A stretch of 64,000 bases of DNA from Chlorobiota bacterium (GTDB lineage: Bacteria; Bacteroidota; Ignavibacteria; OLB7), in assembly GCA_016700335.1 (NCBI GenBank), contig CP065014.1:2374534-2438533 (forward strand), read 5' to 3'. The translations under genes and the position numbers were made by a program. Positions 19,978-54,614 of this stretch are shown one piece after another; position 1 is the stretch's first letter; each line of letters begins with the position of its first letter. The notes under the pieces are model-generated. The model made no database searches. It saw only the letters and a program-made list of their open reading frames with translations, and had not been told where the DNA came from.

Positions 19978-20304
19978 ATGTTCAAGGAGAATTTCATTTA
20001 TATGAGTAAATATATATTTTGGAACGAGTTGCAATTTAAAATGGAACACTTAAACATTAACTTGTTATTAGTTATAAAAAATAAAATTAATATGGAAACG
20101 AACTCTAACACTGTTTTAAATCTAAAAAGTACAATTAAAGTATGTATTCATTGTGGTGTAACTCAATTAGAGGGTCAGGATAAATGTTCAAATTGTGGTG
20201 AAATTTTAAACATAGAATGTAATTGTTGCAATAAAATTATTAGGCAAAATATATTTAACTATTGTCCAAATTGTGGAGTAAAAATAGTTATATTAATCAA
20301 ATAA
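19978..20304 (+). CDS. Small double zinc-ribbon protein
   Basis: The ORF contains two CxxC...CxxC pairs (CIHCG...CSNCG and CNCC...CPNCG). The true start may be an internal Met (METNSN...). It is transcribed divergently from the STAND NTPase gene. Confidence 0.4.
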   Translation: MFKENFIYMSKYIFWNELQFKMEHLNINLLLVIKNKINMETNSNTVLNLKSTIKVCIHCGVTQLEGQDKCSNCGEILNIECNCCNKIIRQNIFNYCPNCGVKIVILIK

Positions 20305-25015: not shown

Positions 25016-26374
25016 ATGTTGAAATTTACTTTAGTACTTTTTTTGATATCATATTTTTCTCTCAATTCTCAAAATATTTTTTCTCCTGTTAGTTCTGGAA
25101 AAGCTCATGCAACTGTTGCAACTAGCAAAGGGTTAGATGCTATATTTTCAAATCCTGCTAGCCTGGATGATAAATCTGATTCAAGTGTTTTCGAGTTGTC
25201 AGTCTATAATTTTGGAGGTAAAATTGGTAAAACTTATCTTAATTCTAGTGAGTTAAATAAAATATTCGGTTTTAGTGGAAGTGAAACAGTAGACAGATCT
25301 GAGTTAGCACAACTTTTAGAAGATGAAAAATTGTTTTTAAACATAGGAATTAACTTGATTACTGCGAAACTTTCACTTGGGAATAACGGTACATTAGGTA
25401 TTAATTTTGGCACTAGATTATATTGTAGGTTAAGATTCGATAATCAACTTGTGAAATTAATTGAAACTAGTAATATTGGAATTCAAGATTATTTGATAAC
25501 TAATAAAGGAGTTGGTGGAGCTTGGACTCGTGAAATTGGAATAACTTATTCTAAACAATTTTTAAATTACAATGAATTTTTCTCAGAATTATCTTTTGGT
25601 ATTACTCCAAAACTAATATTTGGTATTGCCTCATTAGAACTAGATGAAAACAGTATTATTTCTACTAATCAAATTAATGTCCGCGGAAGTTCTGGTTACA
25701 GAATTCGTGGGGGATTTAAATTTTCAGCCTCTCATCCAGATAACTTCAACCTATCTGAAGAGTTAAGTAACTTCACAACTAATTTCTTCTCTCCTTCATC
25801 AGGATTTGGTATTGGGGTTAACTTAGGTTTCCAAACAGTTTTTATTAAAACAGCTAATAGTAAATATAAATTCGGTGTAGAATTACAAGATCTTGGAAAA
25901 ATAAATTGGAGTAATCAAGTATTTAAACGTTCTTTAGTAAATTTAGATGATACAATAACAACTGGTGCAATATCAAACGATAAGTTTAAAGAATATTCAG
26001 GGGAACTCAAAACTGGTGGAGAATTTTCAACTGAACTCCCAACATCCATTCGTTTGGGTTTTGGTGCTGAATTTATTAAGTTAAATATTTCATTTATAAC
26101 ACTTGATTTTGAGAGTGAATTCCCCTTAACTAAAATTGGAGGAGTTTATTCAAATCCAAGATTCGCTATTGGTAGTGATATAAAAATTATGGATTACTTA
26201 TCTTTAAGAAATGGCTTTTCTTTTGGAGGTAATGATGAATTTGGTATTGGGTTTGGAATAGGTCTAAATCCAATATCAAATTTAAAATTTGATATTGGAT
26301 CTAGTTCATTAAACAAATTTTTTACTTTGAAACAAATCGATTTTTCAGCAAGATTGAGCTATGTAATTTTATAA
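25016..26374 (+). CDS. Hypothetical outer-membrane beta-barrel protein
   Basis: The product has a signal peptide and an alternating hydrophobic, Gly-rich beta-strand pattern. Its C-terminal strand ends in an aromatic residue (...RLSYVIL). No specific family could be assigned. Confidence 0.4.
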   Translation: MLKFTLVLFLISYFSLNSQNIFSPVSSGKAHATVATSKGLDAIFSNPASLDDKSDSSVFELSVYNFGGKIGKTYLNSSELNKIFGFSGSETVDRSELAQLLEDEKLFLNIGINLITAKLSLGNNGTLGINFGTRLYCRLRFDNQLVKLIETSNIGIQDYLITNKGVGGAWTREIGITYSKQFLNYNEFFSELSFGITPKLIFGIASLELDENSIISTNQINVRGSSGYRIRGGFKFSASHPDNFNLSEELSNFTTNFFSPSSGFGIGVNLGFQTVFIKTANSKYKFGVELQDLGKINWSNQVFKRSLVNLDDTITTGAISNDKFKEYSGELKTGGEFSTELPTSIRLGFGAEFIKLNISFITLDFESEFPLTKIGGVYSNPRFAIGSDIKIMDYLSLRNGFSFGGNDEFGIGFGIGLNPISNLKFDIGSSSLNKFFTLKQIDFSARLSYVIL

Positions 26375-26425
26375 TAAAAAAGTAGTAAATCCAATCTTTA
26401 ATTTCGTTTTGTGGTTTTGTTAAAT

Positions 26426-26830
26426 TTAATCCTTTAAGTCTAAAGAAGATTTTATAACTTCTAATTTTTCTTTTTCAATATTTTTAAGAGTAACTTTTAA
26501 GTTCATTAGATGAAATATTATTAAAGACAAACCTCCTGCAATCAACATTAAACATACTCCAAATGTATCCATATTTTCAACTTCAAATGTTTGATTTATC
26601 CACCATGTTACCATGCCTGCAATACCCATAAACAGTGCAACAATACCCCATTTCAAATTAGTTAAAGTTTTATTATCATTTGATGTAAATGGTAATGAGA
26701 GTTTATCTAATTCACCAGGTACTAATCCTTGTGTTATTAACGACATCCTTTCTTTATGTCTATCGTTATAAAATTTCCATGAAATTATTGTCCAAAAAAA
26801 TGTAAGAGGAACTAAAATTGTAAAATCCAT
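26426..26830 (-). CDS. Small integral membrane protein
   Basis: The 134-aa product has three predicted TM helices. Confidence 0.4.
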   Translation of the reverse strand: MDFTILVPLTFFWTIISWKFYNDRHKERMSLITQGLVPGELDKLSLPFTSNDNKTLTNLKWGIVALFMGIAGMVTWWINQTFEVENMDTFGVCLMLIAGGLSLIIFHLMNLKVTLKNIEKEKLEVIKSSLDLKD

Positions 26831-27033
26831 TTTGATTGTTTATGATTACAGTTTGAATTAATATTATTTATCGTTTTTATATTTGACCAACCTTTAATTA
26901 TTTTTGTTGCATAAAATATTATTTTTTAGATAAATTTTTTCTTTTTTTAAATTTTAATAATTAATTGATTTTTCATGCAACAAAATTGTGATAGAATATA
27001 GTCTAATTATTTATTATTGAAATTGCAAAAACT

Positions 27034-27630
27034 TTGAAAAATACATTAGATAAAGAAATAGTAGATAGGATTTTGCAAAATGATAAATCTGCTTTTATTG
27101 ATTTGATAAATCGATATAAGAATAAAGGATTTTCATTGTCTATGAAAATACTTAAAAACAAAGAAGATGCAGAAGAAGCTTTACAAGATTCATTTATTAG
27201 GGTTTTTAATGCTTTAAATAATTTCAACTGGAATTCTTCTTTTTCTACTTGGTTCTATAGAATTGTTTTTAATGTATGTTATTCAAGAACCCAGGCAGGA
27301 AGTGAAAAATTTTACAAACTAGGATCTTCAATTAGTGACATGGAGGAAGGTGGTGTTGATAGCATAGGATCTAATAAGATGACTCCAGATACAATTTTAA
27401 TCAATAGTGAAATAGAAAAAATTGTAAATGAAGAAATTGAAAAACTACCTCCACATTATTCAATTGTTCTAGATTTATTTCTACTTCAAGAGCAAAGTTA
27501 TGAGGAGATTGTATCAATAACTGGAATTAATATGGGTACAGTTAAAGCACAAATTAGCCGAGCAAGGATTATATTAAGGAATAATGTTGCTAATCGACTT
27601 GAATTAAATAGTTTAGCAAATATCTATTAG
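27034..27630 (+). CDS. RNA polymerase ECF-type sigma-70 factor
   Basis: The product has a region-2 pattern (ALQDSFIRVFNAL...WFYRIVFN) and a region-4 HTH (EQSYEEIVSITGINMGTVKAQISRAR). Confidence 0.8.
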   Translation: MKNTLDKEIVDRILQNDKSAFIDLINRYKNKGFSLSMKILKNKEDAEEALQDSFIRVFNALNNFNWNSSFSTWFYRIVFNVCYSRTQAGSEKFYKLGSSISDMEEGGVDSIGSNKMTPDTILINSEIEKIVNEEIEKLPPHYSIVLDLFLLQEQSYEEIVSITGINMGTVKAQISRARIILRNNVANRLELNSLANIY

Positions 27631-27680
27631 TTATTTTTTTATTAATATCTTAGTAATTAGTTTTTAATTTTTAAACTAAA

Positions 27681-28214
27681 ATGGATCATTTAACACAAGA
27701 ACAAATCCAACTTTGGATTGATTTGGAATCACCTAACTCCAAGGAGGTGGCAATGCATATTCATATTTGTAAAAAATGTGCAAAAGAAGTAGAATTCAAT
27801 GTTCTGATAGAAAAATTTGCTTCATCAACAAATGAAAATAATATTACAACATTAAATTTTACAAACCAATTAGTTAGTAAAGTTTATCCTTTGAATTTAA
27901 ACTATCTTAAAGAACAAACTTTTTTAGAAAAGTATAGTTTATTAATATTGACTTCTCTTTCAGTTCTTATTGGTTCATTAGTTTACATTAACAAACCTGT
28001 ATTTGCTTCAAAATATTTACCTAATTTAAATCTTAAATCATTTTTTGAATTATCAATTTCAAAACTAATTAATTTATTTGGAGTAAACATAAGTTCAATC
28101 TTACACCTAACTTATGATCCTTTCTTTAAGTTATTAATTGTTTCAACATTAATTATTTCATTCCTTTTCTTTATAGATAAAATTATTAAAAATGTAGTTT
28201 CAAAAAATCATTAA
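27681..28214 (+). CDS. Putative zinc-finger (ZAS-type) anti-sigma factor, membrane-anchored
   Basis: The ORF lies immediately downstream of the ECF sigma gene. Its N-terminal HIHICKKC fits the HxxxCxxC motif, and two TM helices follow. Confidence 0.5.
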   Translation: MDHLTQEQIQLWIDLESPNSKEVAMHIHICKKCAKEVEFNVLIEKFASSTNENNITTLNFTNQLVSKVYPLNLNYLKEQTFLEKYSLLILTSLSVLIGSLVYINKPVFASKYLPNLNLKSFFELSISKLINLFGVNISSILHLTYDPFFKLLIVSTLIISFLFFIDKIIKNVVSKNH

Positions 28215-28228
28215 TTGATTTTATAAAA

Positions 28229-28260
28229 AAGTCGAGTTTGTAGAATTACAAACTCGACTT
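28229..28260. terminator. Bidirectional intrinsic terminator
   Basis: The 14-bp stem aagtcgagtttgta / tacaaactcgactt has a gaat loop and is flanked by an A-run and a T-rich stretch. It sits between convergent genes. Confidence 0.6.
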
Positions 28261-28281
28261 ATAAATTTGAAAATCTGATTT

Positions 28282-28797
28282 CTAGTTAATTTTTGCTCCA
28301 TTATTCATTTCGATTGTACCAGCATCTTTCTTTTCTTTTCCTTTACAGCATCCTTTTTCTTTTTTATCTCCACAACTTTTATTTTTATTTCCACATGATT
28401 TCATCATCGTATCTAACTTTAATTTTTGTTCTTCAGTTAACAAATTTTTAATATCAGATTCTAATTTTTCATGAGCTAATTTAATTTCATTAGCTTTAGC
28501 CTCAATTTGAAGTTTTACCTCTGAAAGTCCAGTAGCTTCTCCTTCAGATTTTATTAGCTTTGCTTTATTCTTTAACTCTTTAATTTCATTTCTTGTAGTT
28601 TCAGTAGAAGTTTTAAATCCTTCCTTTAAAACTTTCATTTTGTCCTTTTGTTCTTGAGTTAAATTAAGTTTTTGCATACATTGATCTGGTCCACAAGCTT
28701 TTTTATCTCCACCACAGTTTCCTGATGCAAATAATGAACTTAAGGATACAATTGAAATCATCAATAAAGTGCTTAAATATCCGATTGTTTTTTTCAT
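28282..28797 (-). CDS. Periplasmic LTXXQ-motif protein (Spy/CpxP/ZraP family) with Cys-rich termini
   Basis: The product has a signal peptide, LTQEQKDKMKVL and LTEEQKLKLDTM motifs, an N-terminal CGGDKKACGPDQC, and a C-terminal CGNKNKSCGDKKEKGCCKGKEKK. Confidence 0.6.
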   Translation of the reverse strand: MKKTIGYLSTLLMISIVSLSSLFASGNCGGDKKACGPDQCMQKLNLTQEQKDKMKVLKEGFKTSTETTRNEIKELKNKAKLIKSEGEATGLSEVKLQIEAKANEIKLAHEKLESDIKNLLTEEQKLKLDTMMKSCGNKNKSCGDKKEKGCCKGKEKKDAGTIEMNNGAKIN

Positions 28798-28922
28798 TTT
28801 TTAAGTATGATATAGTTAGTTTATATGTTTTTTTATCGACGAAATAACAGACTCAAAATTATACATATATAACATTAAATAAAATAAATATTATTTAATA
28901 AATCTGTACATATAATAAATTT

Positions 28923-29360
28923 TTATTTAATTATTTTATCTTTATGTTCGCTTTCTTTGCAACTTTTTAATAATTGTTGTAGTTCAGTATTTTGATAACT
29001 AGTTAAAATCCCTTTAATGTCTGACTTTAACTCCTTTCTTTTAGGTTTTAATACTTCAATTCTGTCTTTTAATAGAGGTTTAATTTCATCAATTTTTATT
29101 TGATTATTTGCTGTTTTTGCATTTTTCAACTCCATTTTTAATACCTTAACCTCATTAATTGAACTTTTATTTTCATTTTTAAATTTTTCAAAAAGAATTT
29201 TTATTTTACTCTTTTGTTCATTACTTAAATTTAATTGTTTCAGTGCTTCTCTAAAACAATTAGCTCTTTTTAGATCTTTGCTAATAGTTAATTTTACTGA
29301 TGTTAAACTGAATACTAATATCAATACAAGTATTCCTATTCTGTTTAATAATCTTTTCAT
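28923..29360 (-). CDS. Periplasmic LTXXQ-like (Spy/CpxP family) protein
   Basis: The product has a signal peptide, LSNEQKSKIKILFEKF, and LTSYQNTELQQLLKSC. It is paralogous in style to the upstream gene. Confidence 0.5.
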   Translation of the reverse strand: MKRLLNRIGILVLILVFSLTSVKLTISKDLKRANCFREALKQLNLSNEQKSKIKILFEKFKNENKSSINEVKVLKMELKNAKTANNQIKIDEIKPLLKDRIEVLKPKRKELKSDIKGILTSYQNTELQQLLKSCKESEHKDKIIK

Positions 29361-29479
29361 TTTAATTTTATTTTTAATTATAATTTGAATAAATAATTTA
29401 TTATTTAAAAGTTAGTTACATCAAAATTAAAATGGTTCCAAAATATTTATTTTTATCAAATTATTTAAGCACTTAATAT

Positions 29480-30217
29480 TTAATAATTATTTTTTTTCAT
29501 AAAAGTATTTGTTTCATTCAATTTACTTATAGAACCTATATCAAACCAATAACTTTCATCACATAACACTCCTTTAATTATCTCACCATTTTTAGCTAAG
29601 TTCAAATATATATCTCTAATAGAAAACGATCCATTTTGGATTATTTTATTAAAAATTTCTGGAGATATTATATGAATACCAGTAAATCCTAATCTGTAAA
29701 ATTCATCTCCTATTATGTTTTTGTCCATAATTTCTTCACAATTTAAATTTCCATATCCACATAAATTATATTCTGAATTGAAAATAAAATATCTATCAGA
29801 TTTTCTATTTTGAACTGCTAAAGTTACTAATGAATTATTTGTTTGGTAATTTTCATATAACTTGTTTAGATTGATATTTGAAACTATATCAACGTTATGA
29901 AGTAATATTGGATACTCTTTTGAGAAGTACTTTTCAGCATATTTCAAACCTCCTCCTGTATCTAGTAATATATCAACTTCAATTGAAATTTTAATATCCA
30001 AATCGAAGTAATTTTTATTTTTAAGAAAATCAATTATCAAATCTTCATAATGGTGAACATTTACTATTATTTTTTGTACACCAAAAGATTTCAATCTTTT
30101 AATAACTCTTTCTAAAACAGTTATTTTATTAACTTCAACAAGTGCTTTTGGTAAATAATCTGTTATTGGTTTAAGTCTGGTTCCTAATCCAGCAGAAAAT
30201 ATCATTGCTTCAATCAT
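29480..30217 (-). CDS. Sugar-phosphate nucleotidyltransferase (MurU/GlmU-N-terminal-like)
   Basis: The N-terminus matches the nucleotidyltransferase G-loop and fold (MIEAMIFSAGLGTRLKPITDYLPKALVEV). The product is 245 aa. Confidence 0.7.
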   Translation of the reverse strand: MIEAMIFSAGLGTRLKPITDYLPKALVEVNKITVLERVIKRLKSFGVQKIIVNVHHYEDLIIDFLKNKNYFDLDIKISIEVDILLDTGGGLKYAEKYFSKEYPILLHNVDIVSNINLNKLYENYQTNNSLVTLAVQNRKSDRYFIFNSEYNLCGYGNLNCEEIMDKNIIGDEFYRLGFTGIHIISPEIFNKIIQNGSFSIRDIYLNLAKNGEIIKGVLCDESYWFDIGSISKLNETNTFMKKNNY

Positions 30218-30304: not shown

Positions 30305-32587
30305 ATGTCAAAAGAAAATCATTCTATATTAAATCGTGATAATTTTAGTACAGAATCTAATCCTTTTTTAACCGAAGAGTATAAAAATGAATGTTTAGAT
30401 AGATTACTTAATTCATGCAAAGCACATTTCAAAATTTTTGATTCAGATTTAATTAAAAGAGCATTTTATTTATGTTATGATGCTCACAAAAAAATGATAC
30501 GAGCTTCTGGAGAACCTTACTGGACTCATCCTTGGAATGTTGCAATGATTGTTGCTCAAGAAATTACTATTGATGATGTTTCTGTTGCAGCAGCATTATT
30601 ACATGATGTTGTAGAAGATACTAATTTTACAATTGAAGATATAAAAGAGGAATTTGGTTTTGAAATTGCAGAAATTGTTGATGGTGTTACAAAAATTGGA
30701 GGTGTATTTCATAGTTATGAAGTTTCACAAGCAGCTAGTTACAGAAAGTTACTCTTATCTATGGTAAATGATGTAAGAGTTATATTGGTAAAGTTTGCTG
30801 ATAGACTTCATAATATTAGAACATTATCATTTTTACCTATTAATAAACAAATCAGAATTGCAAAGGAAACCTTAGAAATTTATGCTCCATTTGCAAATAG
30901 ATTTGGTTTAGCAAAACTAAAATGGGAACTTGAAGATTTATCATTTAAGTATATAAACCCTGATGCTTATAATCAAATAAAAAATGGATTAAAAATAAAG
31001 CGAGAAGAACGTGAAAACTATATAAATTCTTCACTAGATTTACTTAAATCTAGATTAGATAAAGAAGGTTTTACATACCAAATTGCAGGTAGACCAAAAC
31101 ATATTTATTCAATATATAATAAAATGAGAATCCAAGGAAAAGATATTGATGAAATACATGATTTATTTGCATTAAGAATTATTTTAGATACTATAAGTCC
31201 TAATGATTGTTTTACTGTATATGGAATTATTTCTGAGGTTTTCACTCCTGTCCCTGAAAAGTTTAAAAACTATATATCAGTACCTAAGAAAAATGGGTAT
31301 CAATCTATCCATACAACTGTTATTGGTCCTAACGGTAAGCAAGTGGAAATTCAAATTAGAACTAAAAAGATGCATGAAATTGCAGAACGAGGAGTTGCTG
31401 CTCATTTTCTTTACAAAGAATCAACTGATGCAGTTCGTAATCCATTGATAAGTATTGATAAACAGATGGAGGATTGGGTTTCTTGGATGAGAGATGTATT
31501 TGATAAAGCAGGCTCAACAAACGCTTCACAAGAAGTTATTGAAAGTTTTAAAATGAATTTATTTCAAGATGAAATTTATGTTTTTACACCAAAAGGAGAA
31601 TTAAGAATATTACCAAAAGGATCAACTCCAATTGATTTCGCTTTTGAGATACATTCTGCTGTTGGGCTTCATTGTATAGGAGCAAAAGTTTCAGGTAGAA
31701 TTGTTCCTTTGAATTCAGAATTAAAATCTGGAGATCAAATTGAAATATTAACTTCAAAAAATCAAACCCCTAGTTTAGATTGGGAAAAATTTGCATTTAC
31801 TCATAAAGCTCAAAATTCTATTCGCAAATTTTTCAATGAATCTAAAAGATTAAAAATAAAAATTGGTAAAGATGCTTGGCAAAAGATATGTAAAAAAGAA
31901 AAATTTCATATAAATGATGATGACTTAGAAAACATTTGTTTAGCTTTAAAATATAGTAATACAAATGAAATGTTTTTTGAGATTGCAAACGAAATAATTA
32001 CATCTGAAAAAGCTTTAACTTTAATTAAGGAAAAACTAAAACCTTATGTTATACTAAATCAGTCAGAAGATCAATCTTCTGAAATTATTCATTATGATAA
32101 GTTTATTAAAGAAGCTAGATTTTCAAATGGAATTATTGTGAATGGCGATGTTAAAGGGTTGAATTATTCTTACGCAAGATGCTGTAACCCAATTCCTGGT
32201 GATTTAGTAATGGGTGTCATTTCTTCTGGAAAAGGAGTAATAGTTCATCGTTCAAATTGTAATAACATTATTTCTTTACTTCAAAAACCAAAAATTAGAA
32301 ATCAAATAGTTGACGTAAATTGGGATACTAATAACAGCATTGAATTTTTATCTGGAATTAGAGTATCAGGTCTAGATCGAGCTGGTATTTTAAATGATGT
32401 TACACATGCAATTTTAACATGTGATAATACTAACATTAGAAGTGTAAACATATATTCTAAAGATTCCATTTTTGAAGGTTATGTTACTCTAATTGTAAAA
32501 GATTTACCTCATTTGTTAAAACTAATGGAGCGATTAAGAAAGATAAGAAATGTTAAATTAGTTGAGAGATTTGAACAATTGACTTAA
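30305..32587 (+). CDS. spoT: Bifunctional (p)ppGpp synthetase/hydrolase (RelA/SpoT family)
   Basis: The 760-aa product has an HD hydrolase domain (HPWNVAMIVA...LLHDVVEDT), a synthetase domain (RPKHIYSIYNKM, SIHTTVIGPNGKQVEIQIRT), and TGS and ACT domains. Confidence 0.9.
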   Translation: MSKENHSILNRDNFSTESNPFLTEEYKNECLDRLLNSCKAHFKIFDSDLIKRAFYLCYDAHKKMIRASGEPYWTHPWNVAMIVAQEITIDDVSVAAALLHDVVEDTNFTIEDIKEEFGFEIAEIVDGVTKIGGVFHSYEVSQAASYRKLLLSMVNDVRVILVKFADRLHNIRTLSFLPINKQIRIAKETLEIYAPFANRFGLAKLKWELEDLSFKYINPDAYNQIKNGLKIKREERENYINSSLDLLKSRLDKEGFTYQIAGRPKHIYSIYNKMRIQGKDIDEIHDLFALRIILDTISPNDCFTVYGIISEVFTPVPEKFKNYISVPKKNGYQSIHTTVIGPNGKQVEIQIRTKKMHEIAERGVAAHFLYKESTDAVRNPLISIDKQMEDWVSWMRDVFDKAGSTNASQEVIESFKMNLFQDEIYVFTPKGELRILPKGSTPIDFAFEIHSAVGLHCIGAKVSGRIVPLNSELKSGDQIEILTSKNQTPSLDWEKFAFTHKAQNSIRKFFNESKRLKIKIGKDAWQKICKKEKFHINDDDLENICLALKYSNTNEMFFEIANEIITSEKALTLIKEKLKPYVILNQSEDQSSEIIHYDKFIKEARFSNGIIVNGDVKGLNYSYARCCNPIPGDLVMGVISSGKGVIVHRSNCNNIISLLQKPKIRNQIVDVNWDTNNSIEFLSGIRVSGLDRAGILNDVTHAILTCDNTNIRSVNIYSKDSIFEGYVTLIVKDLPHLLKLMERLRKIRNVKLVERFEQLT

Positions 32588-32656: not shown

Positions 32657-34510
32657 TTAATCACATCCTTGAACTGACTCTGCCTCAATACGGCGATTCT
32701 GTTTGCGGATATTTTCTAAATCATCTTTTTGAGATTGAGACATTTTAGCTTCTGCTTTTGGATTAGGTGTAGGTTCTTGAACCGCTGGTTTTGAACTTCC
32801 CATACCGATTGCAGAAACTATTCTACTTGAAGGAATTCCTTTAGAAATCATATAATCACGAACTCTTTTTGCACGACCATCAGATAAAGTTTTATTTTTA
32901 GCTGGATTACCTTCTTTAGAAGCATGACCCGTTAAATTTACTTTTACTTGTTCGCAAGCATTTAAAAATTTGTATAATTTATCTAAATCTCTTGATGTTC
33001 CTTCATATCCAAAATCAATTTCAGTACTATTTTTTTGGAAACGAATGTCAGCTAAACTAAGTTTTTCTCCTTTTCTAACTGGTTTACATCCTTTTGCTGA
33101 TGCAGACCCTGGTTCTAATGGACATTTATCTACATCATCTTGAACTCCATCACCATCTGTATCTTTTTTAGTTGGATCTGTTTTGAAACTTCCATTTGGA
33201 TGATTTCCATTTACTTCATCTCCATCTTTTAAATTATCTCCATCAGTATCTTTATTTGTTGGATCTGTGTTATAAGTTTTAACTTCATCTCCATCTTTCA
33301 ATCCGTCTCCATCAGTATCAGGATTTTTAGGATCAGTTTTGTATCTTGTAACTTCATCTCCATCTTGAAGACCATCACCATCTGTATCAACATTTAAAGG
33401 ATTTGTACGATATTGATTAACTTCATCTCCATCTTTTAATCCATCTCCATCTGTATCAGGTTTTAATGGATCAGTTTTGATATTGTTAACTTCATCTCCA
33501 TCTTTTAATCCATCTCCATCTGTATCAGGATTTTTAGGGTCAGTTTTAGTTGAATTAACCTCTTGACCATCCTTTAAACCATCACCATCTGTATCAGGAT
33601 TACGTGGATTAGTTTTGTAGATTTTAATTTCTTGCTCATTTGTTAAGCCATCTTTATCCCAATCATTATCTTCTGGTTCTCCTTCACCAAGAGCAAATTT
33701 TAATGCTGCTCCAACTCTAATTGAATTATTAGAAAAGTTGAATGCAGATGAATTTGGTAAATCATATGAGTTACCACCTGAAAATTTTGTTAAAGGATAG
33801 ATATAACTTGCTTCTGGAGCAAACACTAAAGATGTTCCTAATGGAATATCATAACTTAAACCAACTTGAAGAGCCGCAAATAATGATTGAGGATCTGGTA
33901 TTTCTCGATCATCAAATTTATTTCTAGTTTTACTTCCGTCTGAGAATGTAAAACCCTCTGTTAACATATCTTCTTGTTGACTAAATTTCTTCGTCATAAT
34001 AAAAGAAAATACAGGACCAAGATTAATATCAAGACCTGCTCCTTGAATTGGACGTAAAGAAAGTAATGGCTCAATACCTATAACACCAATGTTTGAACTG
34101 AATTTGTGTCTGGTATTAAGTTGTACTAGGTTATTATTTAAAACTTGTTGACCAATACGTTCATCAACTGATGTTTCAGCTCCTAATTGAGCATATCCTA
34201 ATCTGAATTGAATTGCAATTGCTTCAGACATTGGAGCTTCATACAAACCACCAAGTGCAATACCATTTCCTTTAGCTTCAGTGAAACCAGGTGAACAGTT
34301 AGGACAATCAGGTGTTAATTGTTTGAAATTTAACGTATGATTGTTCATATTTAAGTTACCATAAACACCTAACATAGCGCGTCTTTTGGTCCCTTCTTCT
34401 TCCATTTCGGTCTGGGAAAAAGCTTTATGAATGCTTACTTGAGTAAGTAAAGCAATCATTAATAAGCTCCCTGCGATTTTTGTGAAACGTTTAACCATTT
34501 TTTGTTTCAA
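32657..34510 (-). CDS. OmpA-family outer-membrane protein with thrombospondin type 3 (TSP3) repeats
   Basis: The product has a signal peptide and an N-terminal beta-barrel region. It carries about nine DTDGDGLKDGDEV calcium-binding TSP3 repeats and a C-terminal OmpA domain (NLTGHASKEGNPAKNKTLSDGRAKRVRDYM). Confidence 0.85.
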   Translation of the reverse strand: MKQKMVKRFTKIAGSLLMIALLTQVSIHKAFSQTEMEEEGTKRRAMLGVYGNLNMNNHTLNFKQLTPDCPNCSPGFTEAKGNGIALGGLYEAPMSEAIAIQFRLGYAQLGAETSVDERIGQQVLNNNLVQLNTRHKFSSNIGVIGIEPLLSLRPIQGAGLDINLGPVFSFIMTKKFSQQEDMLTEGFTFSDGSKTRNKFDDREIPDPQSLFAALQVGLSYDIPLGTSLVFAPEASYIYPLTKFSGGNSYDLPNSSAFNFSNNSIRVGAALKFALGEGEPEDNDWDKDGLTNEQEIKIYKTNPRNPDTDGDGLKDGQEVNSTKTDPKNPDTDGDGLKDGDEVNNIKTDPLKPDTDGDGLKDGDEVNQYRTNPLNVDTDGDGLQDGDEVTRYKTDPKNPDTDGDGLKDGDEVKTYNTDPTNKDTDGDNLKDGDEVNGNHPNGSFKTDPTKKDTDGDGVQDDVDKCPLEPGSASAKGCKPVRKGEKLSLADIRFQKNSTEIDFGYEGTSRDLDKLYKFLNACEQVKVNLTGHASKEGNPAKNKTLSDGRAKRVRDYMISKGIPSSRIVSAIGMGSSKPAVQEPTPNPKAEAKMSQSQKDDLENIRKQNRRIEAESVQGCD

Positions 34511-34606: not shown

Positions 34607-37600
34607 TTATTTTACTATGATGACCAACTGACGATCTATAACGCCATCACATTCTAATGTAAGCATATAAATTCCACTTGCAAAATACTTACTTGAAACA
34701 TCTAACATAGTCTCTTTTTCAATTAACCCAGCTACAGCATTTCCATTTTTAGCAGCTTCAAATTGAGTTAAAACTAAGTTACCATTCATGTCATAAAGTT
34801 TCAATTTAGCATCTTTACTATCATCTAATAAATACTTTACTAACATTGTTGATGAAACTGGATTTGGAGAAATTTTTGTTACTCCACCCTTAAATGGATC
34901 TGTACCTCTTAAACCACCAAGTTTACAGAATCCTTTAACTTTAAATGAACCATCAAACAATCCAGTTGTAATTACTTTTCCACCCTTAGATGGAACATTC
35001 CATTTAATACTTTCCTTCACAAATCTTACTGGTGTTACAGAATCATTTCCTAATAACACATTCATAGGAATTGATTTCAAAGTTCCACTTGCAAGAACAG
35101 GAGAAACTGTTAATGGTAACTGAGCCCAAGTTAGACCTAAAGCATCTTTCTTGTATGAAACCTGTGAAAGTAACGCTGGATCTTGAGGTGCAAGCATTGT
35201 TGCGTTATATTCAATTGTAAAACTAAGCGAAGATACTTCACTTTCTATTATTTTGGTTGGTACTCCATTGTAAGAAATTGTTACGAAGTTAGGATTTGTT
35301 TGTTTAACATCTCCTGTCGAATTATTAATTTCTAATGCAGCGTATGCTACTCTTTCGTCTCCAGTTCCTTGTAATACTATTCTTGCAGAAGCAGGACATG
35401 TAGCATCTGCACTTATTACTATAGAATCTTTAGATGTTCCTGGAGTTCCAACATATTTAACTTTAAGTACTATTTCTTCACCTGGTAATAATGTCTTAGG
35501 TAATGCAGGTATTCCAGATACAATTGTAAATGGTGTTGTTGATGCTGGTCCTCTAAAGTTATTAATTATAGCATTTGTATTTCCACCATTACGGAAACTA
35601 ACACTAACTTCTTTAAACGATACTGAATCAACTAATACTGCTCCAAAATCAACTTGACTTGCAGAAGATGTTAAAATTGTTTTGTTAACAACTAACTTAG
35701 CTGTAGCACTTGCAATTTCATTTCCACAATCACCTTTAACATTACAACTATAATCTCCTGACTCATTTGAAGTCAAATTACTCAAACTATAAGTATTTGA
35801 ATTTGCTCCTGAAATCACTTGACCATTTTTTAACCATTGGTATTTTATGTTTGCTCCAGTTGCTGTAACACTAAATGATGCAGATCCACCTTCACAAATA
35901 ATTTGACTTGTTGGTTGTGTTGAAATTGCAGCTACTGAACCAACTATTACTGTTGCAGTTGTAGTTGTTTGTGTTTGACCACAATCATCAGTAACATCAC
36001 ATGAGTATGTTCCAGCTTCACCAGAACCACTTATATTCGTTGAGTAAGATGATTTAGTTTCACCTGGTAATGCTGTTCCATTCTTTTTCCATTGGTATTT
36101 CAAATTCTTACCTCCAGATACTGTTACTGAGAATGAAATACTACCTCCTGGACAAACATTCTGAGTTCCTGTTGGTTGAGATGTAATTGTAAATGGTTTA
36201 GAAATAGAAAGTTTAGCTGTTAAAGGACCAGATCCAGTAATTGCACAAGCTCCTGTAACTTCTACTGTGTAGAAACCAGCATCTGCTTCTGAAACTGAAG
36301 TTATACTTAAATCAGCTTTATTTTCACCAGGTATATTTACACCATTTTTCTTCCATTGATATGTAATACCAGAGCCAGTTGCTTTAACTGAGAACTTAGC
36401 TGGATTACCAACACATAATTCTAAGTCTTTTGGACCTTCAGTTATTGCACCACCATCTTTAACAGTTATAACACATTCTTTACTTGCCACATCTGGTTTA
36501 CAACCACCTTTAATTGTTACTTTAATTTTAGCATTATTATCTGCTTTAGTAACATTAAATTTATAAGATGATGTAGTTTGACCTACTATCACAGTTCCAT
36601 TTTTTGTCCATTCATATGCTAATCCACCTCCAGTAGCAGTTACATCTAATTGAGCTGCGGTATTATCACATGCATCTAATGTAGCTGGTAAATCTAAAGT
36701 TATTATTGGAGATTTATTTACAGTTAATACAGCTGACACAGTTGTTGAAGGTGGACATTGTCCCATTACTTCAACTGAATATGTTCCTGCATCTGTATCT
36801 ACAACATTACTTAGATTTAACATGTTAGTATTAGCACCTGTTATTGCAACGCCATTTTTCTTCCATTGGAAATTCAAACCTCCACCTTTAGCTTCAACAC
36901 TAAATGATGCATTATCTCCAGCACATGCAATAGCATCAATAGGAGATGTAGTTACTACTGGAGCAGTATTAACAACTAAATAAGCATCAACAGAAACTAC
37001 TGATGCAAAAGCACAAGGTGTTCTTACTTCACAGCTATAATCACCTGCATCAGATGCAGCAACTGAATTAATTGTATAAATTGTATCGTTTGCACCTGGA
37101 ATAATTTGGTTATTCCTTCTCCATTGATAACTATATGTTCCATTATTAAACCATTCTCTTGTACCAAACACTCCAATAGAGAAAGATACATTGCTTCCTG
37201 CACACATTGTTCTATTTAGTGGCTGACGTGTAATTCTTGGTAATGGTAGAACTTTTAATAGAAGTTCTTGAGCAAAATTAACTTTAGTTGAACAAGGTCC
37301 ATTTGAAAAATAATTTGCACGATACTTTGTTGTATCATCTAATCTTAAATTATTAATTCTCATTTTAAACACTGTTGTTGGAGGCACTGGTAATGGATTT
37401 ACAGTTTGATTAGAACTTAAATCATAATGATTACCTAATAAATTACTATGAACAACAGTATCTCTATTAGTTGATGAACTTAGGAAATAATTAGAAGATC
37501 CAATTGTTGTCCAAGTAATTCCATCTCTTTCTAGTTTTTGCCAAATAACACCTGGGTTATCACCGTTTAATGTAACAGATAAGTCACCATTTTCTGTTTC

Positions 37601-40600
37601 GCAAGGTGAAGAATTCACAGCATTTACGCCACCATTAACTGCCAATGAAACTGGTTGTTTCATTTTAACGTTAACATAAATTCTTGTTGGAGGAACTGGA
37701 GTACAAGCACTAAGTACTGGAGCACAAGCCGAACCAACTGGTCTAATTAAATCTAAATAATATAAACCACCATCAGCTAAAGTTGTTACTCCTAAAGGTC
37801 CAGTACCAGGAATTGGTAAAGCAGCTGGTAATGTATGGAATCCTGTTGTTGGAATTGTATATGCAAAATTATTTACTCCATTCATTGTTCCTGAGTTTAC
37901 CAAAGCATTTAATGGACCTCTCCATTCATAATTTAATATATTTAATGCATTATTTCCACCAGCACCCAAAGCTCTAATGTTTGTTGATATAGCATTGCCT
38001 AAAGCATCAGTTGTATTATAGTTACCACTGAAAGTATTACCAGTTGTACCTATACAAACTTCAGTATTGATAACAGGATATGTAACTCCACCAACTAAAA
38101 CTGTGTTTTGTGGAAGTCTATCAGCATACATAGGTCTTTGAACCAAAGTAAATCCTGATGGATTTCCATTAGCCCCATTATATCCAATACGACCATCATT
38201 TCCTTGAATTATATTAAAATTGGCAAATGTTCCTCCTGTTGGTAAAGGAGATCCAGGTGACACAATATTTTGTGTATTATCACTAGTATCAGCCACTGTA
38301 GTTTGAGGATATGGACGAATATCTGTTTGAGTTACTTTCCATCTATAGCCACTTAAATAATCTACTCCGTTTGAACCAGTTGGTAAAATATTTGATGGCA
38401 ATTGAGGAACAGTAAACCCGTAATAATAACTTTCAACACCATTTATTGTACCTGCAACAGCAATACCTTGATCATTTAATGAACCTGCACCAACTGCAGC
38501 TATACCTGGACGCATTTGATCTTGATTCCATTCCCAATTACTATTAATTAAAGGATTTGTAATATCATAAGGTATTAAACCAGCAGGTAATCCAGGACCT
38601 GGCTCTGGGGGACGAGTAATATAAAGATCATTAAATAATGGATTATCACTTACAGCATAAGTTGTAAAAGCACCAGCACATCCAACACTTCCTGGAGCTA
38701 CAAATGTTCTTGGGTTTCCAGTTGGAAGATTTTGATCTGAGCTCCAAACTGGACTCAATGCTGAGTTTAATAATTCAATTTTAACGCTTTTAACACAACC
38801 AGATGTTGCAAAACTTACAGTATGAGCTTGTCCAATACATACATTTGTATTACCAACATCTGCTACTGCTATTTCTGATGGTTGCATTTTTAATACATAT
38901 GCATCATCAAAGTTAGGTGTAGAAGTAGGTGGATAGTTTGAACTAGAAGGGAAACCATAAGAATCACCAAATGCATCAAATACTGGATAAGGAGCATTAG
39001 TATATACCGGAATTGTGTAGACGCCTCCAACTCCTGTATTTGCAACCCTACCACCAACAATATATACATTTCTAGCATCATCTAAGTCCATACCACCGCC
39101 ATTTTGTGCGGTAAATTCTCCCATTTGATTTGCACCATTTGAGTTTAATCCTAAATTCCAAATAGTGTTTCTAACTCTTGGGAACTGGCCAGGAGGAATA
39201 GCTGAAGCTGTTGTTGCTCCAAATCCTGCGTTAGCTACTAATGCGTTTGAAGAAGCCATTAATCTTGAATAACATAACGTATCTAGTCTTGGAGAAAATT
39301 TACATACGAACATATTGTAAGCAGTATATAAATTTATTCTGACAGGTATTCTTGATTGAGGGAAACTTGAACTAGAAGTATTACCAACTACATAAACATA
39401 TCCAGCGTCATCAACATCAATTGCAACACCCCATTCAGTATTTTGGTTTCCACCAATATATGTTGAATACGGGAATTGATTACCATTTGTTTGAGATGGG
39501 TCTACATAAGTAACAAAAGCTTCACCATTTCCTTGACATCTAGTATCTGCCGCTCTATTAGAAATAGGGAATGAATTACGATAGTTTATACCATTATAAG
39601 CTGGGTTAAACTGTGTTGAACCTGCTCCATAAAAAGCTAAACCAGTAGAAGGATCAATTACACCTGCATTATTACTGTAAGTAACACCTGTAATATATAC
39701 ACCTCCTTGTGGAGCTAATGCTAAATCCCAAGCTTCATCATTATCTACTGCTGTGAAATTTGGTGTACTTATCATTGTTCCATACTCCATTTGGCCTCCG
39801 CCTGTATTTGCAGTATTTAACTGTAATAAAAAAGCATCTTCTTGATTAGCTGCATAAGCACCAGCAGGTGAACCACTCCAAGAAGTTGGAAATTGATCAG
39901 CAATTGTTGTACCTAATGTTGTTCTTAAAAAAGGAGCAATTGTTGTTCCTGTAATAAACACAGATTGATTAGGTCCAACTTTAATTGCAGAAACATTATC
40001 TACATAATCAACATATTGACCACTTACGGTTGGTATATCTCCTGCTCCACCGAAATAAGAACCATACAACAATTGAGAACTTCCATTAACAGCTGGGTTT
40101 AGCCTAGCTACGAATCCATCAGTTACATTGTAAAAACCATTTATATTTCCACCTTGAACTTGCGAAGGTAATGTTGGTGCAGTATATCTTGGTGCTGGTT
40201 GGAATGCAACCATTGCAGATCCGAATGTTGGGAAATAATTTGTTGCTGTACCTAAAGCTGGAGGTGCAGTTTGAACTGCTGGTAAAGTAGGTAAAACACC
40301 ACCAGAAAATGGAGGTAAATTCACACCCCATTTAAAGATTGTTTGACCACAAATATAGATTTGTCCTCCATCAACATCAATATCAAAAGCTCCATCTTGA
40401 GTATAACTTCCACCTAAATAAGTAGAATATATGATATTCGTACCTAAAGAATTTAATCCTGTTACGAATGCATCACAATACCCTGGTGTAGCATTAAAGT
40501 TCTGATAAGAAGCGTTTAAATTTTGTGACCCCATATTGTATGGGTTTAAATTCCTATTAGGAGATGGTTGAATTGCACCTAATGATGTAGGCAATGTATT

Positions 40601-54444: not shown

Positions 54445-54515
54445 CGTATTTCAAATATTTAATCTACTTTATTTTGATAAACTAATTTATTTCTAACTTA
54501 AAGGATATAAAAAAA

Positions 54516-54614
54516 GGACCAAGCTTTACCGATTCACACGCCACCTATGCTGACTGCTGCTTCCTTCCGGATCTGACAGGATTGGGCTCGATGACGTTGC
54601 TCGGGACTTGGTCC
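54516..54614 (-). ncRNA. ffs: Signal recognition particle RNA (small/4.5S type)
   Basis: The minus-strand sequence contains CCUGUCAGAUCCGGAAGGAAGCAGCAG, matching the conserved SRP domain IV motif (GUCAGGUCCGGAAGGAAGCAGC). The terminal helix pairs ggaccaag with cttggtcc. The region is a local GC-rich island of about 100 nt. Confidence 0.75.

Follow-up and report, generated by a model that had tools for sequence, protein, structure and literature searches.

The locus is best explained as a whole by two independent units placed tail to tail, Unit 1 (26426-28214) and Unit 2 (28282-29360), a reading to which we give a probability of about 0.72. Unit 1 is best read as an ordinary autoregulated module of an ECF sigma factor, a ZAS anti-sigma factor and a DUF6249 protein and, as far as sequence comparison can tell, recurs as a conserved, self-contained switch in Ignavibacteria, Kapabacteria and Cytophagales-type Bacteroidota. 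Unit 2 consists of two Spy-like periplasmic proteins (LTXXQ1 and LTXXQ2) that are encoded in tandem and restricted to this lineage; it is transcribed towards Unit 1 and, on the best reading, lies beside it by chance.

Organization of the locus

The window, that is, the whole 64-kb stretch of DNA analysed, belongs to the genome of an uncultured member of Kapabacteria/"Chlorobiota" with a GC content of about 28%. The four genes named in the original prediction (the sigma gene, the membrane protein gene and the two LTXXQ genes) were all found by an ORF check where it had placed them. The features of the locus are as follows:

26426..26830, minus strand: DUF6249 small membrane protein, 134 aa (PF19762, 53.4 bits against a gathering score of 33)
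26882..26911, minus strand: putative ECF-type promoter of the DUF6249 gene, TGCAAC(aa)-N15-(g)GTCAAA, mirroring TGAAACC-N15-GGTCAAA at the same position in relatives
26976..27006, plus strand: putative autoregulatory ECF-type promoter of the sigma/anti-sigma operon, TGCAAC(aa)-N16-(a)GTCTAA, the equivalent of TGAAACC-N15-(G/A)GTCTAA in relatives
27034..27630, plus strand: ECF (group 4) sigma-70 family sigma factor, 198 aa (Pfam and NCBIfam)
27681..28214, plus strand: membrane anti-sigma factor, 177 aa, with an N-terminal cytoplasmic zf-HC2-type domain and two transmembrane segments
28229..28260, no strand assigned: predicted hairpin terminator between the convergent units, 14-bp and GC-containing, flanked on one side by a T-run that follows LTXXQ1 on the minus strand and on the other by an A-run
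28282..28797, minus strand: LTXXQ1, Spy/CpxP-family periplasmic protein, 171 aa, with a signal peptide (PF07813, 31.6 bits)
28923..29360, minus strand: LTXXQ2, paralog of LTXXQ1, 145 aa (PF07813, 18.3 bits)

The hairpin at 28229..28260 was the single intrinsic terminator returned by a scan of 26300-29600; its RNA is predicted to fold at -21.2 kcal/mol (z = -6.5), and none of 200 shuffled sequences was equally stable. Transcription of Unit 2 would stop at this hairpin, which the two units share.

The ECF sigma factor and its mirrored promoters

The sigma factor, at 198 aa, carries the sigma-2 and sigma-4 domains only, which is the domain content of the ECF group (group 4). Both Sigma70_r2 (44.1 bits) and Sigma70_r4_2 (41.3 bits) scored above the Pfam gathering scores, and the NCBIfam model TIGR02937 (sigma70-ECF) reached 84.5 bits, its cutoff being 42.9, bearing out the earlier assignment of an ECF sigma gene to this position. 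The two further marks of a group 4 system, an autoregulatory promoter (AAC-containing -35 and GTC/CGT-containing -10 elements) and a co-transcribed anti-sigma gene, were also found; the latter begins 50 nt downstream of the sigma gene on the same strand. According to homolog searches and a metagenome scan, the nearest relative of the sigma factor shares approximately 52% identity, apart from a locus of the same species (L088), which at 99.8% identity was uninformative for footprinting.

In the closest relatives, the intergenic region between the DUF6249 and sigma genes contains a mirrored promoter pair, TGAAACC-N16-(G/A)GTC(T/A)AA. A total of 49 sites of the form TGAAACC[T/C]-N15-[G/A]GTC[T/A]AA were collected from relatives, almost all of them in this intergenic region and in both orientations, and the GTC of the -10 element is invariant (49/49). 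In the window, exactly two perfect matches to TGMAAC-N17-19-GTCWAA occur in 64 kb, where 0.1 would be expected by chance; both read TGCAAC-N18/19-GTCWAA and lie at the homologous positions. A position weight matrix built from the sites of the relatives scored these two promoters below threshold, because the -35 element of this lineage is GCAACA and not GAAACC; the window was therefore scanned with a degenerate consensus and mismatch counting in place of the matrix. The specificity of the sigma factor is deduced solely from its own promoter and that of the DUF6249 gene, and since the -35 element of the lineage already departs from that of its relatives, a target promoter that has diverged further is conceivable. 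The motif TGAAACC-N16-GGTCTAA in mirrored pairs provides a testable promoter for this sigma family of Ignavibacteria, Kapabacteria and Cytophagales, which would allow regulons to be defined across whole genomes and offer a route to the function of DUF6249.

The conserved DUF6249 partner

The DUF6249 gene is divergent from the sigma gene and adjoins the ECF/anti-sigma pair, and a homolog is likewise placed in nearly all of the closest relatives. The 26 closest genome loci share the trio of DUF6249, sigma and anti-sigma genes, which also occurs in many of the 160 loci that were examined; the flanking genes vary. Conserved motifs of the protein include RHKERMxxIEKGL, NPxSSLKWG, and FGGLGL. The DUF6249 protein is the conserved partner of the ECF sigma factor and its likely target, which corrects a plausible annotation by adjacency that had given this place to the Spy-like genes. 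To our knowledge, DUF6249 is almost absent from the literature. The gene had been overlooked in the original prediction.

Taken together, the sigma factor would be held at the membrane by its co-transcribed anti-sigma factor, which is predicted to combine a cytoplasmic N-terminal His2Cys2 (ZAS) site with two transmembrane helices and a short periplasmic loop. Once released, it would transcribe from two mirrored promoters within one intergenic region; one of them would drive its own operon, giving positive autoregulation, and the other would drive the divergent DUF6249 membrane protein, the only output visible locally.

The membrane anti-sigma factor and signal sensing

The anti-sigma factor possesses an HxxxCxxC motif (H26-x3-C30-x2-C33, nt 27756-27779) together with an upstream fourth ligand, H3, as in class I ZAS/zf-HC2 domains. 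Two hydrophobic segments (residues 85-103 and 151-169) are predicted to span the membrane, and the loop of about 45 aa between them would be periplasmic. The protein itself has no Pfam match, and PF13490 (zf-HC2) gave none at E<=1; its positional orthologs include several that match PF13490 at 22.5-35.4 bits (gathering score 22.2), and against a profile of 28 positional orthologs the window protein scored 38.6 bits over its full length. The zf-HC2 search suggested by the original prediction fails for the window protein and succeeds for several of its positional orthologs, and it is through these orthologs and the profile that the HxxxCxxC membrane protein is established as a homolog of ZAS-like anti-sigma factors, a homology whose absence would have counted against that prediction. 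A word-seeded search with the anti-sigma factor recovered essentially the same species only, and an exhaustive HMMER search added only three matches, one of which (P0003) lies on a 1.1-kb contig without usable context. An AF2 monomer model from a 3-sequence alignment (pLDDT 56.7) was too poor for use.

The four ligands (H-x22-H-x3-C-x2-C) behave as a set: all of them are present in 44 of 97 orthologs, and none is present in 50 of the other 53. One interpretation is that the anti-sigma factor is a genuine RsrA-like redox or zinc sensor, which would make Unit 1 a switch for thiol-oxidative or metal stress. Conservation of the complete set as a unit argues for this, and so does the sensitivity to H2O2 of Porphyromonas gingivalis PG1660 mutants (PMC9862357), if PG1660 is assumed to be an ortholog of the sigma factor. 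However, the orthologs without the ligands, about half of the 97, retain the same architecture and promoters. ZAS motifs are moreover structural in non-redox anti-sigma factors such as ChrR and RsiW, and we regard a redox or zinc sensor as doubtful, with perhaps one chance in four. Since about half of the orthologs do without the zinc ligands, the signal is more likely to reach this anti-sigma family through the membrane or the loop, or by regulated proteolysis, than by thiol or zinc chemistry. With all ligands in some members and none in others, the family is a clean natural experiment that could tell a sensory role of ZAS sites from a structural one.

The Spy-like proteins LTXXQ1 and LTXXQ2

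The original prediction had assigned both LTXXQ proteins to the secreted Spy/CpxP/ZraP family. For LTXXQ1 this holds on its PF07813 score alone (gathering score 24.3); LTXXQ2 falls below the same threshold and is attached to the family as a paralog, with 31% identity to LTXXQ1 over 135 aa (E 4e-18). The features typical of the family were found, namely predicted secretion, two LTXXQ motifs and a modelled cradle of helical-hairpin fold: the motifs read LTQEQ/LTEEQ and LSNEQ/LTSYQ in the pair, and both proteins begin with a hydrophobic segment. In LTXXQ2 this segment (residues 8-26) may be a signal peptide or an anchor and has no obvious AxA cleavage site.

The AF2 model of LTXXQ1 shows a helical core at residues ~40-135 (helices 48-85, 88-119, and 122-136, pLDDT 80-92) and tails with pLDDT <50. 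Its best sequence match in the PDB is Spy (E 0.0095). Foldseek top matches to the model were STV, CnrX, NccX, CpxP, and ZraP, with probabilities of 0.96-1.0 and weak E-values (0.06-0.5); for CnrX, NccX and CpxP, the target-normalised TM-scores were 0.56-0.75. Among 5.8 billion proteins, a word-seeded search brought up homologs of LTXXQ1 in its own species only; apart from one distant protein of 155 aa (P0008), the searches of this kind with the anti-sigma factor, LTXXQ1 and a profile of both LTXXQ proteins yielded essentially nothing beyond the same species. Most likely, LTXXQ1 and LTXXQ2 would act as ATP-independent periplasmic holdases.

The Cys clusters noticed earlier at both ends of LTXXQ1 are indeed there, verbatim. 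They comprise Cys 28, 35 and 40, and Cys 135, 142, 150 and 151, so that the 92-residue core is free of Cys and the 54 residues of the tails hold all seven (binomial P 4e-6, for a window background of 1.2% Cys); LTXXQ2 has only two flanking Cys (35 and 134) and lacks Cys-rich tails. These Cys/Lys/Gly-rich tails of LTXXQ1, predicted to be disordered, are the only unusual feature of the locus. Being flexible, they could bind soft metals or form disulfides. A bolder and rather improbable proposal would make LTXXQ1 a new Spy-like sub-type. Its helical cradle would hold unfolded clients, and its metallothionein-like tails of repeated CG-x4-7-C units would meanwhile sequester soft metals (Cu(I), Zn, Cd) or be sacrificed as a thiol/disulfide buffer; in this one lineage, it may have come to lie beside the ECF switch to serve it as an additional input or output. 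The same proposal holds, separately, that the DUF6249 gene with its mirrored ECF promoter may serve a widespread stress sigma factor of Bacteroidota as its conserved, single-gene effector; we know of no explicit description of this so far. Unless metal binding is shown, the Cys-tailed protein is a minor curiosity.

Relationship of the LTXXQ genes to the sigma factor

The original prediction held it plausible that the LTXXQ pair is controlled by the ECF sigma factor and forms a candidate envelope or metal stress module with it. This is not what the promoters indicate. No match to the sigma motif with <=2 mismatches occurs upstream of LTXXQ1 or LTXXQ2, and the two 3-mismatch matches found in these regions are as many as the background of 6.6 per strand-kb would yield; the search for ECF -35/-10 elements upstream of 28797 and 29360 therefore gave nothing above chance, the outcome that had been named as telling against ECF control. 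An LTXXQ neighbour of a related sigma gene was found in 0 of 160 loci by phmmer, a two-sequence HMM, a regular expression or a comparison of 59 small ORFs from the flanks with Pfam. On these sequence grounds, the promoter of the LTXXQ pair is not of the type predicted for the neighbouring sigma factor, and LTXXQ1 adjoins the ECF module but is not demonstrably part of it.

It might still be argued that the pair are lineage-specific members of the sigma regulon, served by a degenerate or non-canonical ECF promoter. The genes physically adjoin the module, Spy and CpxP are classical envelope-stress outputs, the -35 element has already drifted in this lineage, and a weak site, TGGAAC-N17-AACTAA, lies upstream of LTXXQ2. 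However, this site has three mismatches, a level that arises by chance at the rate given above, and lacks the GTC that is invariant in relatives; LTXXQ1 has no site at all at <=3 mismatches. Together with the convergent orientation, the terminator between the units and the lack of LTXXQ neighbours in related loci, this makes membership of the regulon quite unlikely, at odds of about one in ten.

TAATTTTG, a candidate for the Bacteroidota housekeeping -7 element, was found upstream of both LTXXQ1 (at 64 nt) and LTXXQ2 (at 69 nt). As an LTXXQ promoter, TAnnTTTG was rejected: it occurs 11 times in sense and 12 times in antisense in the intergenic DNA of the window and is not enriched in sense, so no promoter is claimed for these genes. 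The two upstream regions gave no meaningful alignment with each other, and a generic sigma-70 promoter scan (16 sites, 25.5 in shuffles) was uninformative.

The pair could also be imagined as an input, one or both LTXXQ proteins (LTXXQ2 possibly being membrane-anchored, given its strongly hydrophobic N-terminus) binding the periplasmic loop of the anti-sigma factor and tuning sigma release upon metal or misfolded protein, much as CnrX acts on CnrY and CpxP on CpxA. This is the least probable of the explanations and very unlikely: the Foldseek matches to CnrX, NccX and CpxP and the pairing of anti-sigma factors with periplasmic PF13801 proteins in ECF281, ECF290 and ECF291 (PMC7826278) speak for it, but those matches have weak E-values, neither LTXXQ protein matches PF13801 at E<=1, CnrX-type His/Glu/Met ligands are absent by inspection rather than by alignment with CnrX (LTXXQ1 has one His and LTXXQ2 two), the LTXXQ genes do not share a transcript with the sigma operon, and the module does without such a partner in every relative examined.

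Comparison with known systems

Among named models, the best match of the sigma factor is SigW, yet its scores (PRK09641, 132 bits; TIGR02948, 109 bits) are far under the equivalog cutoffs of 209 and 243. SigW of Bacillus subtilis is autoregulated and its outputs are mostly small membrane proteins; its partner RsiW is also a membrane anti-sigma factor with an N-terminal zf-HC2 domain. Unlike RsiW, which has one transmembrane segment and a sizeable extracytoplasmic domain, the window anti-sigma factor has two such segments and its short loop. Its ligand arrangement resembles the His2Cys2 pattern of ChrR-type ZAS proteins (H6/H31/C35/C38 in ChrR), and its orthologs match zf-HC2. However, ChrR is soluble and carries a C-terminal cupin domain, whereas the window protein is membrane-embedded and has no extra domain.

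LTXXQ1 is similar to Spy, CpxP and ZraP of Escherichia coli in its PF07813 match, two L[T/S]xxQ motifs, signal peptide and helical-hairpin core of about 95 aa. We know of no counterpart in these three proteins to its disordered tails with seven Cys; ZraP uses His-rich motifs.

The original prediction held that such an arrangement had not been described for this lineage, which needs qualifying: in ECF281, ECF290 and CnrYXH, the anti-sigma factor is already paired with a periplasmic heavy-metal-resistance protein (PF13801), at position +2 in ECF281 and ECF290 (PMC7826278). The resemblance of an ECF sigma factor, a zinc-finger anti-sigma factor at +1 and a nearby periplasmic protein of CnrX/ZraP fold is superficial. 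Here the LTXXQ genes are convergent, behind a terminator, without an ECF promoter and absent from relatives, and none of the marks of membership (a conserved neighbour, PF13801, CnrX ligands) was found.

Unit 1 is probably, by analogy, the kind of module found near P. gingivalis PG1660. PG1660 (RpoE/SigE), whose anti-sigma factor is PG1659, reportedly belongs to group ECF251. Gene content is the basis of the likeness: in the PG1660 system and in the neighbourhood of clsB in Bacteroides fragilis, as in Unit 1, an ECF sigma factor, an adjoining membrane anti-sigma factor and DUF6249 lie in one small cluster (PMC12094164; bioRxiv 10.1101/2025.05.12.653583; PMC12596196). PG1662, which encodes the DUF6249 protein, is two genes from PG1660 (PMC12094164), and in B. 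fragilis DUF6249 adjoins the ECF sigma gene together with DUF5056 (bioRxiv 10.1101/2025.05.12.653583), to which neither the window anti-sigma factor nor the downstream protein of a Bacteroidales relative (L083) has a match. This relative has DUF6249, sigma factor and a protein with two transmembrane segments in a row on one strand, whereas in the window and its Ignavibacteria-like relatives the DUF6249 gene points away from the sigma gene, with a mirrored ECF promoter of its own.

Organization of the locus

The locus studied here comprises, with a probability of roughly 70%, two units, an ECF sigma/ZAS anti-sigma switch and an abutting pair of LTXXQ genes for Spy/CpxP/ZraP-like periplasmic proteins. 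The first would be an ordinary autoregulated switch whose conserved local output would be a DUF6249 membrane protein; the second would be two tandem genes for Spy-like periplasmic proteins, restricted to the species and merely abutting the sigma module. The original prediction, in which the ECF sigma factor controls the LTXXQ pair as a candidate envelope or metal stress module, identified the components correctly, but the functional link it proposed was unsupported. The main caveat of the two-unit reading is twofold: the genome offers only two promoters from which sigma specificity is deduced, and the relatives compared include none at intermediate distance, which bears on lineage-specific recruitment. 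The features of the locus are as follows.

26426-26830 (-), DUF6249 membrane protein, divergent from sigma (PF19762 53.4 bits, gathering score 33)
26911-26882 (-), candidate promoter facing DUF6249, TGCAAC(aa)-N15-(g)GTCAAA
26976-27006 (+), candidate promoter facing sigma, TGCAAC(aa)-N16-(a)GTCTAA
27034-27630 (+), ECF sigma gene (Sigma70_r2 44.1 bits, Sigma70_r4_2 41.3 bits, both above gathering scores)
27681-28214 (+), anti-sigma candidate (H26-x3-C30-x2-C33; hydrophobic segments 85-103 and 151-169)
28282-28797 (-), LTXXQ1 (PF07813 31.6 bits, gathering score 24.3)
28923-29360 (-), LTXXQ2 (PF07813 18.3 bits, below threshold)

The window has a low GC content (~28%), and public sources place its proteins in a MAG of an uncultured "Chlorobiota bacterium" / "Candidatus Kapaibacterium sp."; the same locus was found on many Logan contigs as well as on the 3.14-Mb contig JADKIV010000001.1 (99.8% identity). 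All four originally predicted ORFs (sigma, anti-sigma, LTXXQ1 and LTXXQ2) are present at these coordinates; together with the domain scores and the two Cys strings quoted for LTXXQ1, both of which are present at its ends, this confirms the earlier observation. The assignment of sigma as an ECF factor is further upheld by the NCBIfam sigma70-ECF superfamily model (84.5 bits, cutoff 42.9). SigW was the best named model, but sigma is not a SigW equivalog, because it scored 132 bits against a cutoff of 209.

Anti-sigma factor

No Pfam or NCBIfam match was found for the anti-sigma candidate itself, and direct searches returned almost no homologs, so orthologs were taken by gene position from the 80 genome loci retrieved with sigma. 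In most of these, a 155-200-aa two-TM protein is encoded 3' of the sigma gene; the start of this downstream gene and the sigma stop codon overlap in the closest relatives. When eight orthologs with the ZAS motif were searched for PF13490 (zf-HC2), four exceeded the gathering score (22.5-35.4 bits) and three were just below it. Against a profile of 28 orthologs taken by position, the window protein aligned along its entire length and scored 38.6 bits (E 5e-8, with the database size set nominally at 10^6 sequences). H3, H26, C30 and C33 (window numbering) occur all together in 44 of 97 aligned non-identical family members, while the remaining 53 have either none of the four (50) or a single one (3); this all-or-none pattern is the signature of a putative single His2Cys2 metal site. 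The ortholog matches, the profile match and the ligand covariation support the assignment as a ZAS anti-sigma factor, originally suggested by the HxxxCxxC motif. Roughly half of the family works without this site, which argues that zinc/thiol chemistry would not be its general sensing mechanism. Among the orthologs (L007-L172), the ZAS site is gained or lost as a unit, with architecture and promoters unchanged. The AF2 model of the anti-sigma factor (three-sequence alignment) was too poor for use (pLDDT 56.7).

Promoters and conserved neighbourhood

The closest relatives possess a mirrored promoter-like pair in the DUF6249/sigma intergenic region, with TGAAACC[T/C]-N15-[G/A]GTCTAA facing sigma and TGAAACC[T/C]-N15-[G/A]GTCAAA facing DUF6249. 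G, AAC and GTC are invariant over 49 sites of relatives, and within 5 kb on either side of each locus the motif is essentially limited to this intergenic region. In the window, perfect matches to TGMAAC-N17-19-GTCWAA on both strands of the 64 kb are confined to the two candidate promoters, against 0.1 expected from shuffles; both sites share ATGCAACAAAA. A PWM built from the relatives' sites under-scores these promoters because, judged by the sites compared, the -35 of the window lineage has drifted from theirs. By lineage (the window, L028 and L034-L086 compared), the -35 reads ATGCAACAAAA in the window, GCAACC in relative L028 and TGAAACC in 47 of 49 Ignavibacteria-like sites, and Cytophagales relatives carry the variant GTAACC with a GCATCTAA -10. 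Such variation suggests that sigma specificity and promoter have drifted together.

The DUF6249 gene, which the original prediction did not include, has a homolog with sigma in all 26 closest genome relatives and in many Cytophagales loci, mostly divergent and directly upstream of sigma. The 80 metagenome loci follow the same pattern where long enough (anti-sigma in 69, DUF6249 in 38). Searches of the 160 loci with phmmer, an HMM built from LTXXQ1 and LTXXQ2, and a double L[TSN]xxQ regex detected no LTXXQ-like ORF in the vicinity of sigma. This co-occurrence, with LTXXQ lacking throughout, argues that the conserved unit is DUF6249, sigma and anti-sigma; by the same comparison, the LTXXQ pair is peculiar to the window's species. 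The other window neighbours (DUF5723, DeoC aldolase, NTP transferase and RelA/SpoT) are syntenic in no relative. When 59 small flanking ORFs of the 26 closest loci were scanned with Pfam, YmdB appeared in 12 loci, and GcpE, methyltransferases and others were matched as well; neither LTXXQ nor Metal_resist is among the 25 families listed, which include all those with at least two ORFs, and 24 further families had a single ORF each.

In these 12 relatives (L007, L010, L011, L014-L016, L020, L022-L024, L027 and L038), the YmdB phosphoesterase gene is located at most ~4 kb downstream of the module, the place taken by the LTXXQ genes in the window, and in most of them is preceded by a ~530-aa gene, forming an rny-ymdB-like housekeeping pair. 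DUF6249 and 61 homologs share a strongly conserved RHKERMxxIEKGL on the cytoplasmic side after TM1, and conserved NPxSSLKWG and FGGLGL in later TM helices.

LTXXQ proteins and their expression signals

LTXXQ1 passes the PF07813 threshold; LTXXQ2 does not do so alone, yet it is a clear paralog (31% identity over 135 residues, E 4e-18). The seven Cys of LTXXQ1 are all found in its 54 tail residues; the 92-residue core has none (P ~4e-6 against the window Cys frequency of 1.2%). In its AF2 model, a helical core (~40-135, pLDDT 80-92; helices 48-85, 88-119 and 122-136) is flanked by disordered tails (pLDDT <50). The best Foldseek PDB matches were Salmonella STV, CnrX, NccX, CpxP and ZraP, with probability 0.96-1.0 and target-normalised TM-score 0.54-0.83 at weak E values (0.06-1.1), and the best PDB sequence match was Spy (E 0.0095). 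In LTXXQ1, LTXXQ2 and P0008, a distant 155-aa homolog, one Cys shortly precedes the first L[T/S]xxQ and another directly follows the last helix (KSC or NCGG); the two may clamp the helical hairpin as a conserved disulfide. Extra CG-x4-7-C repeats in a Lys/Gly-rich context occur in LTXXQ1 only. Word-seeded protein searches found no LTXXQ1 homolog beyond its own species, and no description of a Cys-rich LTXXQ protein was found in the literature searched.

ECF control of the LTXXQ pair was not borne out: no motif above chance lies upstream of either gene, and no LTXXQ neighbour was detected in the 160 loci. Upstream of LTXXQ1, no match was found at up to three mismatches. The region upstream of LTXXQ2 (29355-29520) contains two 3-mismatch matches, both without the invariant GTC and one in the end of the upstream NTP-transferase gene; such matches occur at 6.6 per strand-kb, the number that chance predicts in the sequence scanned. 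A 14-bp hairpin (28229-28260, -21.2 kcal/mol, z = -6.5), followed by a T-run on the LTXXQ1 strand, separates the convergent units. LTXXQ2 and LTXXQ1 may be co-transcribed, because no terminator was found between them. TAATTTTG lies 64 and 69 nt upstream of LTXXQ1 and LTXXQ2, respectively, but it is not supported as their promoter, TAnnTTTG showing no sense-strand enrichment in the window.

Other features of the window

11918-16423 (-), 1501-aa protein with a weak Por_Secre_tail (T9SS sorting domain) match
19978-20304 (+), 108-aa ORF with nine Cys as CxxC/CxC pairs (CIHCG...CSNCG...CNCC...CPNCG)
30305-32587, RelA/SpoT gene adjoining the LTXXQ side of the locus
32657-34510 (-), OmpA-family protein with many thrombospondin type-3 (DxDxDG) repeats
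34607-41872 (-), 2415-aa DUF7948/Ig-repeat protein
54514-54613 (-), bacterial small SRP RNA (54.2 bits, gathering score 40), the only Rfam match

The 108-aa ORF resembles a double zinc ribbon; at this position a gene is called on the opposite strand (91 aa), with no Pfam match on record. An ARAGORN search of the 64 kb turned up no tRNA genes.

Comparison with known systems

ECF sigma factors combined with a zinc-finger anti-sigma factor and a CnrX/ZraP-like periplasmic protein have precedents in ECF281, ECF290 and CnrYXH, which are defined by a periplasmic protein at a conserved place by sigma (+2 in ECF281/ECF290) and by its PF13801 match (PMC7826278). Unlike these, the window LTXXQ proteins have no conserved sigma-adjacent place and no PF13801 match, and they lack the His-rich ligand set of CnrX. 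The mildly novel remainder is the Cys-rich tails of LTXXQ1 and the mirrored-promoter DUF6249 arrangement.

In Bacteroides, proteins with DUF5056 and DUF6249 domains are listed alongside a sigma factor in the conserved clsB neighbourhood (bioRxiv 10.1101/2025.05.12.653583). In P. gingivalis W83, the DUF6249 protein PG1662 is encoded two genes from PG1660 (PMC12094164), an ECF sigma factor whose mutant is H2O2-sensitive (PMC9862357); the neighbouring PG1659 is reported to be its anti-sigma factor. A 2025 study placed PG1660 and B. thetaiotaomicron BT1817 in group ECF251. The Bacteroidales relative L083 carries DUF6249, sigma and a two-TM protein in a row, and by analogy with this gene row the window module is probably the Ignavibacteria/Kapabacteria version of the PG1660/PG1662-type cluster.
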